This document shows positions 39,734-46,237 of a DNA stretch of 59,524 nt, in pieces (the first letter of the stretch is position 1; every line of letters begins with the position of its first letter). Origin of the DNA: Defluviitaleaceae bacterium (GTDB lineage: Bacteria > Bacillota > Clostridia > Lachnospirales > WRAA01); NCBI GenBank assembly GCA_009780015.1, contig WRAW01000004.1:1-59524 (forward strand), given 5' to 3'. Made by a program: the position numbers and the translations under genes. Below the pieces are notes generated by a model, which saw only the letters and a list, made by a program, of their open reading frames with translations, had not been told where the DNA came from and ran no database searches.

Positions 39734-41051
39734 CCGGAAGCTCAACCCAGAACAGCACGCCGCCGCCCGTGTTCTCAAGCGCGAACCTGAGCCCCATACA
39801 CTCCAGCGTCTTAGCCACAATCGTGAGCCCGAGACCGCTGCGTCCGCCGTGCGTACGCGCCGTATCCACGCGAAAGAATGGGTTGAAGAGCTTAGGAAGC
39901 GTATCTTCATCAATATGAGCGCCGGTGTTCATCACGCACAGCCTTATGTGTTCGTCCGAAGACCCGGCGTTATCCGTCCATATGTGAATCCCGCCGCGCT
40001 CCGGCGTGTTCTGCACAGCGTTTATGACTACGTTGGACAGCGCCCGATCCAGCATCGCGGGATCAGTCACGCACGTGAGCTCCTCTGGAATCCGTAACTC
40101 CAGAGCGAGCTCTTTTTTGTCTATCAACGCCTGATAGCGCGGCAGGACGTCCTCCGCAAGCCCGCGAATACGCACCGTCTCAAGCCTGGGCTCGATCTTG
40201 CCGTCCGTCAGCTTCACAATCTCCAATATCTCGGTTATTATCTTATTTTGCTCGTTAGTCAACTTGAGGCACTCCCACAGGTACTTGGGATGATCCCTGT
40301 ATTCGCCGATGTCGTCGAGCATCCCTTGCAGCAGCGCGCCGGTCGCGGCAATGGGTGTCTTGAGCTCGTGCGACGCCGCCGCGAAGAAGTACCGCTGCGC
40401 CTCCTTCTCCTCCTCCAAGTCCGCGATTGTGTCCTTGAGCTTGCCGTACATCTCGTGCACAATCTCCGACAATGTACCAAGCTCGTCCTTGCGCGCGGGC
40501 GGCGGCGTAACGGGCTCAAGCCGCGACATCAGCATGGCGTCGTCCACCAGTGTCTTTATGGGCCGCGTCATCTGCCGCGCGAACGCCACGGTCGCCACAA
40601 AACAAATCGCTATCAGCACGAGCGACCCCAAAAATATCGTGTCGGTCAACTGCGACAAGTCCTCGCCGCCAAACGCCGGAGCGGACGCCGTCAGCGTAAA
40701 GCCGTCCCCCACCTGCAGCACGATGTTGTAAAGCTGATTGTGCTCCATTATGTCCGTAATATTTACCGACGCGAACACAACACGCCCCCACGGGTCTCGC
40801 ATCACAAAGCTGTACGACTGATTCCTGTCGGAAAAATTGCGCGCGATGCCCGCGTATTCGCTGCGATGCGCCGCCGAAAGCTCCTCCGTCAGTTCCGAAA
40901 AGCTCTCGCTAAGCTGACGTATCCTCGCCGTATTGTAAAACGACACAACCTGCTGGGCAAACAGCGCCGACGTAACGCCGATGACCATCAATATCAGCAG
41001 CATCGTATACAAAAGCACCTTCATAAAGATGCCGTGTCCATCGAATCTCAT
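39702..41051 (-). CDS. HAMP-domain sensor histidine kinase, VanS(B)-like
   Basis: Two TM segments; GIF.KV..YT...LFAQQ; FARQMT.PIK; QRYFFAAASHELKTPIAA; GRSGLGL. The resemblance to VanSB is from memory. Confidence 0.88.
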   Translation of the reverse strand: MRFDGHGIFMKVLLYTMLLILMVIGVTSALFAQQVVSFYNTARIRQLSESFSELTEELSAAHRSEYAGIARNFSDRNQSYSFVMRDPWGRVVFASVNITDIMEHNQLYNIVLQVGDGFTLTASAPAFGGEDLSQLTDTIFLGSLVLIAICFVATVAFARQMTRPIKTLVDDAMLMSRLEPVTPPPARKDELGTLSEIVHEMYGKLKDTIADLEEEKEAQRYFFAAASHELKTPIAATGALLQGMLDDIGEYRDHPKYLWECLKLTNEQNKIITEILEIVKLTDGKIEPRLETVRIRGLAEDVLPRYQALIDKKELALELRIPEELTCVTDPAMLDRALSNVVINAVQNTPERGGIHIWTDNAGSSDEHIRLCVMNTGAHIDEDTLPKLFNPFFRVDTARTHGGRSGLGLTIVAKTLECMGLRFALENTGGGVLFWVELPVIAGPAAPPA

Positions 41052-41080
41052 ATACCTCTCCTCGTCCCGGAACCCGTTTT

Positions 41081-41162
41081 ATTCGCGTTTCGTTGTCTAA
41101 AACCACTTAGACTGCGCCAACTTTTACATTGTGAAAGTTTTAGACAACATGAAAACACGAAT
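41081..41162. repeat. Imperfect inverted repeat between the regulator and kinase genes
   Basis: GTTGTCTAAAAC (41092-41103) / GTTTTAGACAAC (41137-41148), extendable to ATTCG../..CGAAT. Confidence 0.6.
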
Positions 41163-41816
41163 TTATTCCAGACAATACCCCGCCCCGCGCACAGTCTTTA
41201 TAATGTTCTCGGGCAGCTTCTGTCGCAAGTTCTTCATATGTGTCCAGACAGTTCCCTCGTCGCAGTCAAAATCGTAGCCCCACACGCGCGAAAGTATCAT
41301 TGCTGGCGAAAGCGTCCGCCCCTTGCTCTGCACAAGCAGCATAAGTATCTCGAACTCCTTGCGCGTAAGCGTGATCGGCGCGCCGTCGTACTCCGCGCGA
41401 AGCGCCTCGGGAAACAGCGCAAGCTTGTCGTGCCGCACCTCCTTGCTAAGAACGCCGCTCCGCCGCAAGAGCGCCTCGGATCGCATCACAAGTAGCTGTA
41501 TGTTAAACGGCTTCGTCACATAATCGTCGGCTTCGTTCGCAAACGCCTTGATCTGGCTCTCATCATCGGTCAGCGCGGTTATCATGAGCACGGGCGTGCT
41601 GTTCAGCTTGCGAAACTCGCGCAGCAGCTCGTGCCCGCCAAGCCCGGGCAGCATTATGTCCAGTATCACCAGATGATACGTCTTGTCATAAAACATCTCG
41701 AGCGCACGCGCCCCGTCCGCGCTTGTATCCACGGCATAGCCCGCCTGATTCAAATAATTCTTTATCATATCGCGAATGTGCTCGTTGTCCTCGACCACTA
41801 ATATCTGTATGTCCAT
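41163..41816 (-). CDS. OmpR-family response regulator, VanR(B)-like
   Basis: LVILDIMLPG..GHELLREFR, EADDYVTKPF, LTRKEFEIL.LLVQ.KGRTL and KNLR.KLPENIIKT.RG.GY motifs. Confidence 0.9.
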   Translation of the reverse strand: MDIQILVVEDNEHIRDMIKNYLNQAGYAVDTSADGARALEMFYDKTYHLVILDIMLPGLGGHELLREFRKLNSTPVLMITALTDDESQIKAFANEADDYVTKPFNIQLLVMRSEALLRRSGVLSKEVRHDKLALFPEALRAEYDGAPITLTRKEFEILMLLVQSKGRTLSPAMILSRVWGYDFDCDEGTVWTHMKNLRQKLPENIIKTVRGAGYCLE

Positions 41817-41854
41817 TAGCGCCCCCTTACTGATTCAATGCCGCAATTGCCACA

Positions 41855-41886
41855 ATAATACCACGTCTTCATGAAGTTTACATGAA
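41855..41886 (-). promoter_or_regulatory. OmpR-type tandem box and -10 element upstream of the response regulator
   Basis: Minus strand reads TTCATGtaaacTTCATGaa, then 7 bp, then TATTAT. Confidence 0.6.
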
Positions 41887-41929
41887 TTTTAAACGCCCTA
41901 CGGCTAAAAATAACTTTGCCTAGGGCGTT

Positions 41930-42148
41930 TCATATTCGTTTAGGATTATCGGAGCGGCCTGTTAAATAATCAATACTTACGTCGAAATAGTCTGCCAGAG
42001 TGGTTAGACTTTTAATGTTCATGTCTCTTTTGTCGTACTCGTAGTTCTGATAAGCGTTAGTTGCTATCCCAAGGTAGTCAGCAATTTCTCTTTGCGTAAC
42101 ACGTTTTTCCAGCCGTAATTGTTTTAACCGCTCTCCAAATGTAGGCAC
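41930..42148 (-). CDS. XRE-family repressor 1 (72 aa)
   Basis: GTG start after GGAGTG; FGERLKQLRLEK.VTQREIADYLGI...LADYFDVSIDYLTGRSD. Confidence 0.88.
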   Translation of the reverse strand: MPTFGERLKQLRLEKRVTQREIADYLGIATNAYQNYEYDKRDMNIKSLTTLADYFDVSIDYLTGRSDNPKRI

Positions 42149-42233
42149 AAAATCACTCCGCTGCAAAAAATATTAAAACCTCCTTGATGCCATTAAAATA
42201 ATGGTGCATGATATAATCATCATATTGATAGCT

Positions 42234-42443
42234 TTAACGGGTGTCGGAGCGGCCTAGCAAGTAATCGGCGCTGACTTCAAAGTAGTCGGCGAACTTAGAT
42301 AAAACATCTGACGGCGGTAAACGCTCACCCGTTTCATACCTATAGTAAGCCATCACCGATATTCCAACAGCTTCCGCAACGTCTTTTTTAAGCAGTTTGT
42401 GTTCTGTTTGAAGTTGTATAAGGCGCTCACCAAACGAAGGCAT
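42234..42443 (-). CDS. XRE-family repressor 2 (69 aa)
   Basis: FGERL...KKDVAEAVGISVMAYYRYETGER.P...ADYFEVSADYLLGRSD. Confidence 0.88.
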   Translation of the reverse strand: MPSFGERLIQLQTEHKLLKKDVAEAVGISVMAYYRYETGERLPPSDVLSKFADYFEVSADYLLGRSDTR

Positions 42444-42481
42444 AAACATCCCCTGAAAATATGAAAATATTATAAAAAGTA

Positions 42482-42594
42482 TTGACATAACCGTTTGGAT
42501 ATGTTAACCTATCAACAACATATAACCAATCGGTTATGTTAACACACCCGAATGGTTATGACACAACACTACCATACACCACCCCGAAAGTCAA
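42482..42594. promoter_or_regulatory. Face-to-face sigma-A promoters with three CATAACC-N4-GGTTATG-like operators
   Basis: Plus strand TTGACA-17-TAACCT (42482-42510); minus strand TTGACT-17-TAGTGT (42594-42566); operators at 42485, 42520 and 42542. Confidence 0.7.
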
Positions 42595-42609
42595 GGAGAT
42601 AACTTTTAT

Positions 42610-42837
42610 TTATATGCGTTCAGAGTTGTCGGATCGGCCTACCAGATAGTCAAGAGATACATCGAAATAGTCAGAAATGGCGATGAGTGTGTCCGCCGTA
42701 GCTGAGCTTTGTGCGCTTTCCATCATGCTAATAGCCGATTTACCTTTGCCAAGAGCCTTTGCTAATATCTCTTGACTAATATTGCGGCTTGACCTCAATA
42801 ATTTAAGTCTTTCAGAAAAAACTTTTTTGTTAAGCAT
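42610..42837 (-). CDS. XRE-family repressor 3 (75 aa)
   Basis: FSERLKLLR...SQEILAKALGKGKSAISMMES...SDYFDVSLDYLVGRSD. Confidence 0.88.
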   Translation of the reverse strand: MLNKKVFSERLKLLRSSRNISQEILAKALGKGKSAISMMESAQSSATADTLIAISDYFDVSLDYLVGRSDNSERI

Positions 42838-42846
42838 AAAAACCTC

Positions 42847-42948
42847 TTGACAAAAGTTCAATGGTATTGTACAATAACATTGTGTTCAATACCATTGAAC
42901 AAGACTATTTCTTTAGTTTATTTTAGCATGTCAAAATTCCAATGTCAA
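42847..42948. promoter_or_regulatory. Face-to-face sigma-A promoters with two GTTCAAT-N3-ATTGAAC operators
   Basis: Plus strand TTGACA-17-TACAAT (42847-42875); minus strand TTGACA-17-TAAAAT (42948-42920); operators at 42856-42872 and 42884-42900. Confidence 0.75.
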
Positions 42949-42971
42949 TCAACGTCAAAAAGGATGGTTTT

Positions 42972-43250
42972 ATGAAAAATATTTTAGAAGAACTATACTT
43001 CGGGAGCATCGACAAAAATTTTGAACTATACGGTAATAATCCAGATTATGTCGAGTCTGCCCAGCTAAAAGAAATTAATCATGAGAAGCTGGTGGCCGCC
43101 CTGAACGAATCCGAAAAAGAACGGTTTGAAAAATATCTTGTCGCAGACAGGGATTTAAAGGAAATAGAGCAATACAACACCTTCACATATGCCTTCAAGC
43201 TTGGAGTCCTGCTTATGACGGAGGTTGTTGCCCTTCATTCAACCGACTGA
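42972..43250 (+). CDS. Small helical protein, DUF6809-like
   Basis: MKNILEELYFG.I...L...EKERFEKY...F.YAFKLG.LLMTEV; divergent from XRE3. Confidence 0.7.
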   Translation: MKNILEELYFGSIDKNFELYGNNPDYVESAQLKEINHEKLVAALNESEKERFEKYLVADRDLKEIEQYNTFTYAFKLGVLLMTEVVALHSTD

Positions 43251-43725
43251 ACTCCATTTGATAGCAATAGAAATCTATATCGTACATAGATGTTTCACCG
43301 CATTTTGCAAATCCGTTTTTATCGTATAAAGCCAAGGCCGCGGCATTAGATTTGCTGACCGCCATCCTTATACCGTCGAAGCCCCTTGCTTTCACGGAGT
43401 CTATTACGTTTTGCAGAATTATTGTTCCGATTCCTTGCTGCTTCATCGTGGGAATAACGGCTAGTCTTGACAGTTCACAAGGGTTTTTCAGCGCCCATTG
43501 CAAATTATCCAATTCGCTTTCCCGCCCTGCCGTAGCGACAGCAATTATTTTGTCATCATCTTTTAAAATGTACAGCGACTCATTCTCTATATCCGATTTT
43601 GCCGTTTCATTATTGGGATAATACACATTCCAGGCACACCCCGGCGTACCTATCTGGCTATGATATAAATCAAGAATTTCTGGAATATCGTCATGACACG
43701 CTAACGAAAAATTGTATGATCTCAT
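43213..43725 (-). CDS. GNAT family N-acetyltransferase
   Basis: LSRLAV.P..KQQGIGT and N.AALALY.KNGF motifs. Confidence 0.88.
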   Translation of the reverse strand: MRSYNFSLACHDDIPEILDLYHSQIGTPGCAWNVYYPNNETAKSDIENESLYILKDDDKIIAVATAGRESELDNLQWALKNPCELSRLAVIPTMKQQGIGTIILQNVIDSVKARGFDGIRMAVSKSNAAALALYDKNGFAKCGETSMYDIDFYCYQMEFSRLNEGQQPPS

Positions 43726-43757
43726 TTCAACCCAACTTTCTGATAAATAGTATATTA

Positions 43758-46073: not shown

Positions 46074-46237
46074 TATAGCTGATCCGGTTGAAAACCATCC
46101 CATCAGGCTTGTCTTTTTTGTGCAATACGTCGTCAGTTCCGCCTAGCGTGCCTATAGGCACGCGTCGTTGTCACTTCCTAGTCTTGCGCAAAAAATCCTG
46201 CGCCTGACAGCAACGGTTTTCAACCGGAACAGCTATA
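46074..46237. mobile_element. Type-D palindromic element
   Basis: TATAGCTGATCCGGTTGAAAACC ... GGTTTTCAACCGGAACAGCTATA; shared core in reverse orientation (CGTCGTCAG..CCTAGCGT..ACGCGTCG..TCCTAG). Confidence 0.82.

Follow-up and report, generated by a model that had tools for sequence, protein, structure and literature searches.

Three tandem XRE repressor genes opposite a single DUF6809 gene: a possible stack of heteroimmune switch cassettes in a Defluviitaleaceae genome

Why should a bacterium keep three different small repressor genes in a row when a single gene is left for them to control? The question is raised by positions 41930-43250 of a stretch of 59,524 nucleotides (nt) from a Defluviitaleaceae bacterium (assembly GCA_009780015.1, contig WRAW01000004.1, positions 1 to 59,524 of the forward strand; this whole stretch is called the window), in which three genes for helix-turn-helix (HTH) proteins of the XRE type, XRE1, XRE2 and XRE3, stand in tandem opposite one gene of the family DUF6809. 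An earlier reading of the letters alone (the original prediction) had described a tandem array of repressors, each with its own operator and promoter switch, and had proposed either a library of captured repressors or a cascade of promoters. Sequence comparison shows that the cassette to which the array belongs is recurrent, and no earlier description of it was found. The reading favoured here, to which we give an even chance, is that the locus is a stack of three accreted heteroimmune switch cassettes, in which the orphan repressors persist, probably as trans-acting immunity. The genes of the array, with bounds set by ribosome sites and by comparison with paralogs and homologs, are the following.

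41930-42148, minus strand: XRE1, the distal orphan; 72 amino acids (aa) from a GTG start, with GGAG 7 nt 5′ of the GTG; HTH_3 match at E 1.5e-11
42234-42443, minus strand: XRE2, an orphan with a complete control region; 69 aa; HTH_3 match at E 5.3e-11
42610-42837, minus strand: XRE3, nearest to the surviving DUF6809 gene, of which it is the partner; 75 aa; HTH_3 match at E 1.2e-13
42972-43250, plus strand: DUF6809 gene, 92 aa, PF20648 match at E 2.9e-19; the sole cargo gene remaining, divergent from the XRE genes

The three co-oriented repressors of about 70 aa claimed earlier are thus present as three intact minus-strand genes, whose products score 44.6, 42.8 and 51.3 bits, in the order XRE1 to XRE3, against the Pfam family HTH_3 (PF01381; cut-off 23). 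Their scaffold is conserved (RL..L, followed by ADYF.VS.DYL.GRSD) and the region of helices 2 and 3 is hypervariable, in agreement with the differing recognition helices that had been noticed. The proteins comprise an HTH domain only, with no C-terminal oligomerisation or cleavage domain recognised by Pfam in their 69-75 aa, and no ImmA-like gene adjoins the XRE genes in the array neighbourhoods of the genome. The one target gene assigned to module 3 encodes a full-length DUF6809 protein (70.1 bits, where the cut-off is 27, with all 85 profile positions covered). The control regions, numbered as modules after the XRE genes, contain the following features.

42847-42948, both strands: module 3 switch region, with facing promoters and two operators
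42847-42852 and 42870-42875, plus strand: module 3 rightward promoter, TTGACA and TACAAT, separated by 17 nt
42948-42920, minus strand: module 3 leftward promoter, TTGACA at 42948-42943, 17 nt, then TGCTAAAAT (TAAAAT with a TG extension), to 42920
42884-42900 and 42856-42872: module 3 operators (O3, of the GTTCAAT-N3-ATTGAAC type), the former perfect (7+7), the latter with one mismatch
42482-42594, both strands: module 2 switch region, with facing promoters and operators on the same plan as module 3
42482-42487 and 42502-42510, plus strand: module 2 rightward promoter, TTGACA and the weak extended -10 TGTTAACCT
42594-42566, minus strand: module 2 leftward (XRE2) promoter, TTGACT (reverse complement of 42589-42594), 17 nt, then TGGTAGTGT (reverse complement of 42566-42574; TAGTGT with a TG extension)
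42522-42537, 42487-42502 and 42544-42559: module 2 operators (O2), respectively perfect (6+6), with one mismatch, and with a degenerate left arm
42184-42217, plus strand: truncated control region of module 1, with TTGATG at 42184-42189, a palindrome at 42190-42204 and an extended -10; directed rightward, that is, antisense into XRE2

The operators of module 3 sit in the spacer and just downstream of its rightward promoter, and the predicted facing transcripts overlap by about 30 nt; a second predicted overlap measures about 45 nt. The facing promoters claimed for the repressors of modules 2 and 3 were located, with TTGACT and TTGACA as their -35 elements and a spacing of 17 nt in each, and the two copies of O3 were also confirmed, whereas the three copies claimed for O2 proved generous, as the degenerate left arm of the third leaves one perfect site and one with a single mismatch. 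Likewise, the notion that every module carries a promoter with a private palindrome holds for modules 2 and 3 and less well for module 1, where the palindrome (O1, CCATTA-N3-TAATGG) occurs in a single copy at 42190-42204, the -35 reads TTGATG, and there are two candidates for the -10, namely CATGAT at 17 nt and, at 22 nt, the perfect extended -10 TGATATAAT (42209-42217). No facing (leftward) promoter was found for XRE1, and thus XRE1 must be read through from the promoters of XRE2 and XRE3. The scan counted 10 promoter-like sites, where shuffled sequence gave 4.3 +/- 1.6. Across the assembly (2.77 Mb, 83.6% complete), O3 has one perfect site and two sites at one mismatch or fewer, both at the array; O2 has one perfect site and seven at one mismatch or fewer, two of them at the array; O1 has two perfect sites, the second of which lies in coding-like DNA on contig C23. 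The palindromes of modules 2 and 3 are therefore confined to their own cassettes in the assembly, and their clustering is not due to chance.

The same arrangement recurs elsewhere in the genome. A complete cassette consists of an XRE gene of about 70 codons, a control region of 130-200 nt and a divergent DUF6809 gene, with two strong predicted promoters that face each other and two or three cassette-specific operators. Ten control regions of the genome were aligned, of which eight share one backbone and two (C4_X1 and C89_Xc) are truncated. The backbone runs from the DUF6809 start and its ribosome site through the -35 and the extended -10 of the repressor promoter to a variable operator core, followed by the DUF6809 promoter (first its extended -10, then TTGACA) and by the XRE start; the -35 of the repressor promoter overlaps the DUF6809 ribosome site in most aligned cassettes, and the DUF6809 promoter lies 35-45 nt before the XRE start. 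These eight cassettes, with a repressor opposite its target and operators over the promoters, bear out the comparison with phage immunity switches made in the original prediction. The genome is also unusually rich in both partners: it contains 18 matches to PF20648, against 0-5 in 40 relatives. At E 1e-8 it has 13, while 65 of 400 other genomes of the order have at least one and none exceeds 6. XRE matches of the array type number 16, against at most 11 in 150 other genomes. Five of the 18 DUF6809 copies face array-type XRE genes (C4, C89, C46, C87 and C8), one (C32) faces two tandem HTH genes of another type, and seven have no regulator recognised by Pfam. Longer arrays are found as well: on C89 the DUF6809 gene is followed by six tandem XRE genes and on C46 by two. 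Part of the C89 array (Xc-Xe) is devoid of internal control regions, and its most distal gene retains a long one. A gradient of decay away from DUF6809 was considered and is not claimed, because the spacing data are mixed.

How, then, did the array arise? Its three XRE proteins are 37-46% identical to one another, whereas the best match of each on other contigs reaches 49-60%, the closest relatives of XRE2 being on C46 (59%) and C8 (57%) and that of XRE3 being the XRE protein of a phage-like locus on C87 (49%). Since the members are closer to copies elsewhere than to each other, the array was built from already diverged cassettes and not by local duplication, which corrects its earlier description as a paralogous tandem array. 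A trace of the joining is preserved between XRE2 and XRE3.

42593-42618, plus strand: DUF6809 remnant of module 2, with AAGGAG at 42593-42598 and ATGCG at 42614-42618, the latter overlapping the last codons of XRE3

A profile of the junction DNA (the DUF6809 5′ end plus the repressor promoter) matches 42617-42561 from the exact start codon, at profile positions 24-76, and the region 42593-42618 is homologous to intergenic regions on C46, C89 and C8. The orphan AAGGAG to which the original prediction had drawn attention is real, and by this homology it is the ribosome site of a deleted DUF6809 gene, of which the five bases ATGCG abut the XRE3 stop. This stub, on C4 (the contig of the array), amounts to 2 codons. 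The profile finds comparable 5′ stubs of DUF6809 at four other places: between tandem XRE genes on C89 (13 codons) and at the metagenome loci L083 (5) and L100 (14), and ahead of a lone XRE gene on C21. Each of the five junctions examined begins, on its other side, within 0-3 nt of the point at which the adjacent XRE gene stops. One deletion could have been guided by a stretch of 8-9 nt that, in the window, is found both in the tail of XRE3 and at the start of DUF6809, although this is a suggestion only. Loss has been one-sided: DUF6809 has been removed at five junctions and has one apparent one-base frameshift (C46), and the XRE genes have been retained, all 13 aligned XRE open reading frames (ORFs) of the DUF6809-linked modules of the genome being intact and equipped with a ribosome site.

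A metagenome scan with XRE1 gave 80 loci, and 12 XRE1-like loci were inspected, of which 11 are full-length and 78-92% identical to XRE1; the twelfth (L091) ends at a contig edge and is 87% identical over 45 residues. At 8 of these 12 loci, DUF6809 is found a short way upstream on the opposite strand; it is about 2 kb away at L085, and none was detected by profile at L081, L082, L086 and L088. Eight loci share the recognition helix of XRE1, and all seven of these for which upstream sequence is available carry two copies of the O1 palindrome type. In complete XRE1-type cassettes the palindrome type thus occurs twice, beside the -35, where the window retains one copy. By contrast, the four loci with changed helix residues (L080, L086, L088 and L089) carry changed palindromes. 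That helix and operator vary together is the strongest indication available that the XRE proteins may read the sites adjacent to them.

Arrays are not confined to this genome. In metagenomes, a DUF6809 gene is followed by two XRE genes at five loci (L083, L087, L093, L094 and L100), by four at L092 and by five at L131, and L126 has a run of seven; at a shared position beside fba there is either one XRE gene (L068 and L113) or two (L094). In a complete genome from another family (G067), five XRE genes spaced 12-53 nt apart form an operon that faces a DUF6809-like gene, and the XRE genes of G067, L092 and part of C89 are packed as operons with spacings of 12-80 nt. The array of the window itself was recovered from an independent termite-gut sequencing run (X2, from another study), in which contigs span both the junction of XRE1 with XRE2 and the segment that runs from XRE2 to DUF6809, at 0-3 differences; two runs contain the stretch, one of which is possibly its source, and such contigs cannot show rare variants.

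In the favoured model, each XRE protein would bind as a dimer to its own palindromes, over the spacer and the start site of the promoter directed at DUF6809, and would shut that promoter, while the XRE message would start at the facing promoter and read through the operators. Repression, collision of polymerases and the antisense overlap of 30-45 nt would together produce a two-state switch. The array was assembled by the joining of diverged cassettes and the loss of cargo genes: cassette 3 alone retains its DUF6809 gene, cassette 2 has lost all but the ribosome site and the first five bases, and cassette 1 has lost its own repressor promoter as well, so that XRE1 must be read from the promoters of XRE2 and XRE3. 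The orphan repressors have most likely been kept because they act in trans, on cassettes of their own immunity type in DNA that enters the cell, and may also hold shut the serial rightward promoters aimed at the single DUF6809 gene. A function in trans is indicated by the orphan genes being intact and, elsewhere, packed into operons without operators of their own, and the silencing of incoming cassettes or elements of the same type is the most likely function of this kind. The captured-repressor library of the original prediction is compatible with the sequence and gains indirect support in that XRE1-type genes occur in complete cassettes, the XRE genes are intact and arrays are packed as operons; it falls short in that no mobile element with the operators was found.

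The library can be carried further, to a proposal in which we place very little confidence, namely that XRE arrays form a heritable archive of transcriptional immunity. Cassettes of a new type would be captured beside the resident DUF6809 gene by a defined joining reaction in which the old repressor is kept. That reaction would place the junction 0-3 nt past the XRE stop, leave a 5′ stub of DUF6809 and finally make the old repressor operon-borne, details that we regard as no more probable than the archive itself. It is equally doubtful whether DUF6809 would then be the common trigger protein of a family of small mobile elements in gut Clostridia.

Several observations weigh against the stack of heteroimmune cassettes with trans-acting orphans. 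The regularity of the junctions (0-3 nt) is not explained by random deletion, and the model offers no mechanism for it. Module 1 is weak, with a single operator and an awkward spacing of 22 nt to its best -10. Pairwise ratios of nonsynonymous to synonymous substitution (dN/dS) mostly record history in complete cassettes and are no proof of constraint on the orphans. Pairing with an XRE gene is the minority context of DUF6809, since only about 5 of the 39 DUF6809 loci in a sample of the order have a divergent HTH gene, and five of the 18 copies in the genome (two on C23 and those on C11, C7 and C9) follow a co-directional ribbon-helix-helix gene. Cassettes of the genome lie among housekeeping genes and are not accompanied by an integrase, relaxase or transposase gene, and those inspected in metagenomes likewise have no mobility genes beside them. 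No mobile element with the operators of the array was found; a tblastn search of one DUF6809 copy against plasmid and phage collections gave no match, and viral contigs scanned with a DUF6809 alignment (A2) yielded no relative, the same alignment giving only six loci in a collection of genome contigs. Lastly, the original prediction had looked to the number and identity of modules across strains, and the array is near-identical in its two samples, with no turnover seen.

One alternative is neutral decay, in which the array is the wreck of adjacent or recombined cassettes, DUF6809 was lost by chance, and the orphans are functionless genes that have not yet decayed. We consider this unlikely, if less so than the other alternatives. 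It agrees with the lost promoter of module 1 and the degenerate operator, with the apparent one-base frameshift in the C46 DUF6809 gene, with the lack of mobility genes nearby and with the failure to find a further site, in trans, of any operator in the assembly. It is at odds with the intactness of 13 of 13 aligned XRE ORFs with ribosome sites, and chance loss would not be expected to remove the cargo and spare the repressor at five or more junctions. The operon-packed arrays of G067, L092 and part of C89 have a streamlined look, the same array persists in two independent samples, and XRE1 differs from its relatives by a dN of 0.06-0.13 at a dS of about 1 or beyond the range of the method. 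A quite different possibility is an addiction-type system resembling toxin-antitoxin or abortive-infection modules, in which DUF6809 would be harmful, XRE would be its transcriptional antidote and the orphan XRE genes would be anti-addiction genes that outlasted the toxin. The one-sided loss, with the cargo going first, would suit such a system too, as would cassettes that are small, low in GC, multi-copy and dispersed among housekeeping genes, often near ParE, YoeB/RelB, HepT/MNT and HicAB pairs; the XRE proteins weakly resemble antitoxin and capH-type HTH proteins, and some DUF6809 copies follow a co-directional ribbon-helix-helix gene, as toxins often do. However, those ribbon-helix-helix genes are 110-230 nt from DUF6809, which leaves no translational coupling, and XRE and DUF6809 are divergent, each with its own predicted promoter, rather than co-transcribed. 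Moreover, DUF6809 has no conserved polar or catalytic residues, L5 alone being invariant, has no match in PADLOC and belongs to no known toxin family in Pfam, PADLOC, NCBIfam or PHROGs, and elsewhere it lies inside transfer operons without a dedicated repressor. An addiction-type role thus seems rather improbable.

The cascade of the original prediction is a further alternative. Three rightward promoters, each shut by its XRE protein, would feed the one DUF6809 gene, with antisense transcription through XRE2 and XRE3. All three promoters are indeed aimed at DUF6809, and no terminator-like site was found by sequence scan within 41700-43400. The orphan module 2 retains a consensus -35 and both promoters despite the loss of its cargo, and a like retention is seen at C89 Xb, L083 and L100. 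On the other hand, rightward transcripts must pass two strong opposing promoters, and the arrays without internal control regions (G067, L092 and C89 Xc-Xe) show that a cascade cannot generally be why arrays exist. The cascade is distinctly improbable here, and we think just as poorly of its further step, in which the release of any repressor would switch on DUF6809 and silence the repressors downstream.

The protein that the heteroimmune cassettes would control belongs to a family of 4,743 clusters at 50% identity (E up to 0.001). The member in the window was modelled by AlphaFold2 as a short N-terminal helix followed by a long helical hairpin (mean pLDDT 83.8). In the family alignment L5 is invariant and I4, G11, F71, G78 and F86 are nearly so, all of them hydrophobic or glycine positions, and no polar or catalytic residue is conserved; DUF6809 is accordingly modelled as a non-enzymatic helical-hairpin protein. 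Comparison with the PDB gave a best E of 8.9 with Foldseek and of 0.23 with a sequence profile; no match was found in PHROGs, PADLOC or NCBIfam, or in Pfam beyond PF20648; the ESM Atlas returned unnamed clusters only (0.85-0.86); and a full-text literature search on the name DUF6809 retrieved no paper. A prediction of the XRE3-DUF6809 complex scored 0.00, which was counted neither for nor against binding. In the sample of the order, DUF6809 stands beside TnpV at seven loci (L027, L033, L054, L057, L058, L059 and L061), directly upstream of TrbL at six (L062, L063, L064, L066, L069 and L073), between ParB and RepA_N at L050, and beside NikA or Mob_Pre at L060, L061 and L067. On C87 of the genome studied here (L018 1629-5258; C87 420-8057), it heads an operon of the TerL-portal-scaffold-capsid type opposite an XRE gene. 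These gene orders place DUF6809 of other genomes in conjugative or mobilisable elements and suggest that it serves mobile elements as a small accessory protein, often encoded by the first gene of an operon.

In the C87 operon, DUF6809 and TerL are followed by an SPP1-type portal and a 162-aa protein; a repeat insertion comes next, then a 334-aa protein and several small genes. No small terminase could be recognised, and DUF6809 occupies the place in which one is expected.

The repressor-operator regions of lambda and CTXphi are known heteroimmune switches of temperate phages. The array resembles the cI-OR-cro region of lambdoid phages and the rstR region of CTXphi, with its variable intergenic sequence, in having a small HTH repressor of the Cro/C1 type opposite the controlled gene, with several palindromic operators over the promoters, and in the joint variation of repressor helix and operators between otherwise similar elements. 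The best NCBIfam model for XRE1, XRE2 and XRE3 is in fact the RstR subfamily (NF041951), at 56.9, 64.4 and 47.2 bits, which is below its cut-off of 80 bits. There are also differences: the repressors are bare HTH proteins of 69-75 aa with no oligomerisation or cleavage domain, the promoters of the array face each other and are not back to back, and the controlled gene is DUF6809 rather than Cro or a replication protein. Unlike the regions of temperate phages and of integrative and conjugative elements, the array has no prophage, integrase or replication genes attached to it, although its sister cassette on C87 heads a phage-like operon. With regard to promoter geometry, the closer parallels are prgX/prgQ of pCF10 and pR/pL of coliphage 186, where an HTH repressor and its target are expressed from convergent promoters with overlapping transcripts, as is predicted here; in such an arrangement, interference and antisense pairing can add to repression. 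PrgX carries a peptide-sensing domain, and the transcript overlap of pCF10 is far longer than about 30 or 45 nt, whereas no sensing domain or peptide gene was seen at the array. Arrays of protective genes are also known from the orphan modules of contact-dependent inhibition (CDI) and Rhs systems, from acquired immunity clusters and from orphan antitoxins. The likeness to the CDI/Rhs modules lies in protective genes placed in a row beside one effector, with 5′ effector remnants between them, and the difference is that the immunity proposed here is transcriptional repression, not protein neutralisation, and that DUF6809, as the effector, is not known to be toxic.

On the conjugative plasmid pLS20, an XRE-type repressor gene (Rco) lies opposite the conjugation operon, the first gene of which encodes ConAn1, a small protein of about 100 aa (PMC8191782). 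DUF6809 is comparable in that it heads the packaging operon on C87 and precedes TrbL at six loci. An identity of DUF6809 with ConAn1 (PF17362) was considered and rejected: PF17362 gave no match at E 0.01, and hhalign gave a probability of 0.1% against a PF17362 protein. PF17362 itself occurs in 1 of 301 genomes of the phylum. In the titles and abstract openings of the literature on tandem XRE paralogs, recognition helices and operators, no such array was found, and the literature on face-to-face promoters, repressors and conjugative elements gave no matching system.

The cassettes present the repressor-operator logic of phages as a tiny free-standing unit, with DUF6809 multiplied 18-fold in a single bacterium of the termite gut, and with as many as six or seven repressors in an array. 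They provide a natural set of small, putatively orthogonal repressor-operator pairs with defined promoters, at least 13 in this genome, each with a protein of about 70 aa and a site of 15-18 bp, which may be useful for circuit design in Firmicutes. They also give a first handle on DUF6809 as a family under dedicated (predicted) repression that mobile elements place beside genes for transfer, replication and packaging. If the orphan repressors act in trans, bacteria would have in such arrays a new means of recording mobile DNA and of resisting it; if the archive existed as well, it would be a repressor-based counterpart of orphan immunity-gene arrays.

Some cassettes have features of their own. 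The C46 DUF6809 gene (L024, C46 19899-20290) reads in two frames, as if an extra A followed about codon 29, and could be a pseudogene or an assembly error. On C23 (L011 4645-5578), two tandem DUF6809 genes of different subfamilies come after one ribbon-helix-helix gene (phrog_876, "repressor"), with a PD-(D/E)XK transposase-like gene and a GNAT gene downstream of the pair. DUF6809 cassettes adjoin rlmH and/or murA-type genes at L015 and L017 (C7 and C109) and, in another family, at L074 (G067); given this adjacency in two families, some insertion sites may be old or preferred. In G067, the locus L078 (G067:C1:3274000-3286000) contains three DUF6809-like genes (two of 92 aa, one cut to 58 aa) among repeated sets of small genes in an array of about 7 kb, and looks like a variable locus of the toxin/immunity type. 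At the metagenome loci L110 and L119, the layout is different: a short HTH gene on the minus strand and an XRE gene on the plus strand stand back to back, and four or five such pairs recur every 650-700 nt.

The surroundings of the array in the window include three further features.

41820-43750, both strands: low-GC islet of about 1.9 kb by composition profile, containing the array, the DUF6809 gene and a GNAT gene
41880-41930, minus strand: hairpin directly 3′ of the XRE1 stop
43213-43725, convergent on the DUF6809 gene: GNAT gene, inside the islet; PF00583 match at E 4.8e-14

The islet has a GC content of 0.31-0.44, against 0.55-0.62 in the left flank and 0.47-0.61 in the right; a response-regulator and histidine-kinase gene pair flanks it on the left, and the convergent GNAT gene, araD and a sugar-kinase gene on the right. 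In agreement with the absence of integrase and phage genes reported earlier, no integrase, transposase or phage family was named by NCBIfam among 39 ORFs of the window, chosen from a greedy set of 51 ORFs of at least 90 aa plus a second ORF list, 14 of the 39 being without a match at E 1e-10. The sister genome G001, too diverged and fragmented for synteny to tell whether the islet is an insertion, has a different gene following the response regulator. The hairpin (folded over 41865-41945) has a predicted energy of -26 kcal/mol and a z of -5.1, with none of 200 shuffles equally stable, and is without a clear U-tract; it is probably the end of the leftward XRE transcript, its putative terminator role being read from position and fold. 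The single Rfam match in the window is a tRNA. The GNAT gene overlaps the DUF6809 gene by 38 nt, and GNAT genes are also found near DUF6809 on C23 and in G026 (L028). Just 5′ of the sugar-kinase gene, at 46074-46237, lies a repeat of about 165 nt, which recurs dozens of times in G001 at 74-98% identity. The segment at 41000-41241, which separates the histidine-kinase gene from the response-regulator gene, has a summed contig depth of 320-460, against 10-20 nearby, in both runs; it includes a joint that goes back 50 and an ORF resembling ORFs on other contigs, and is probably another dispersed repeat.

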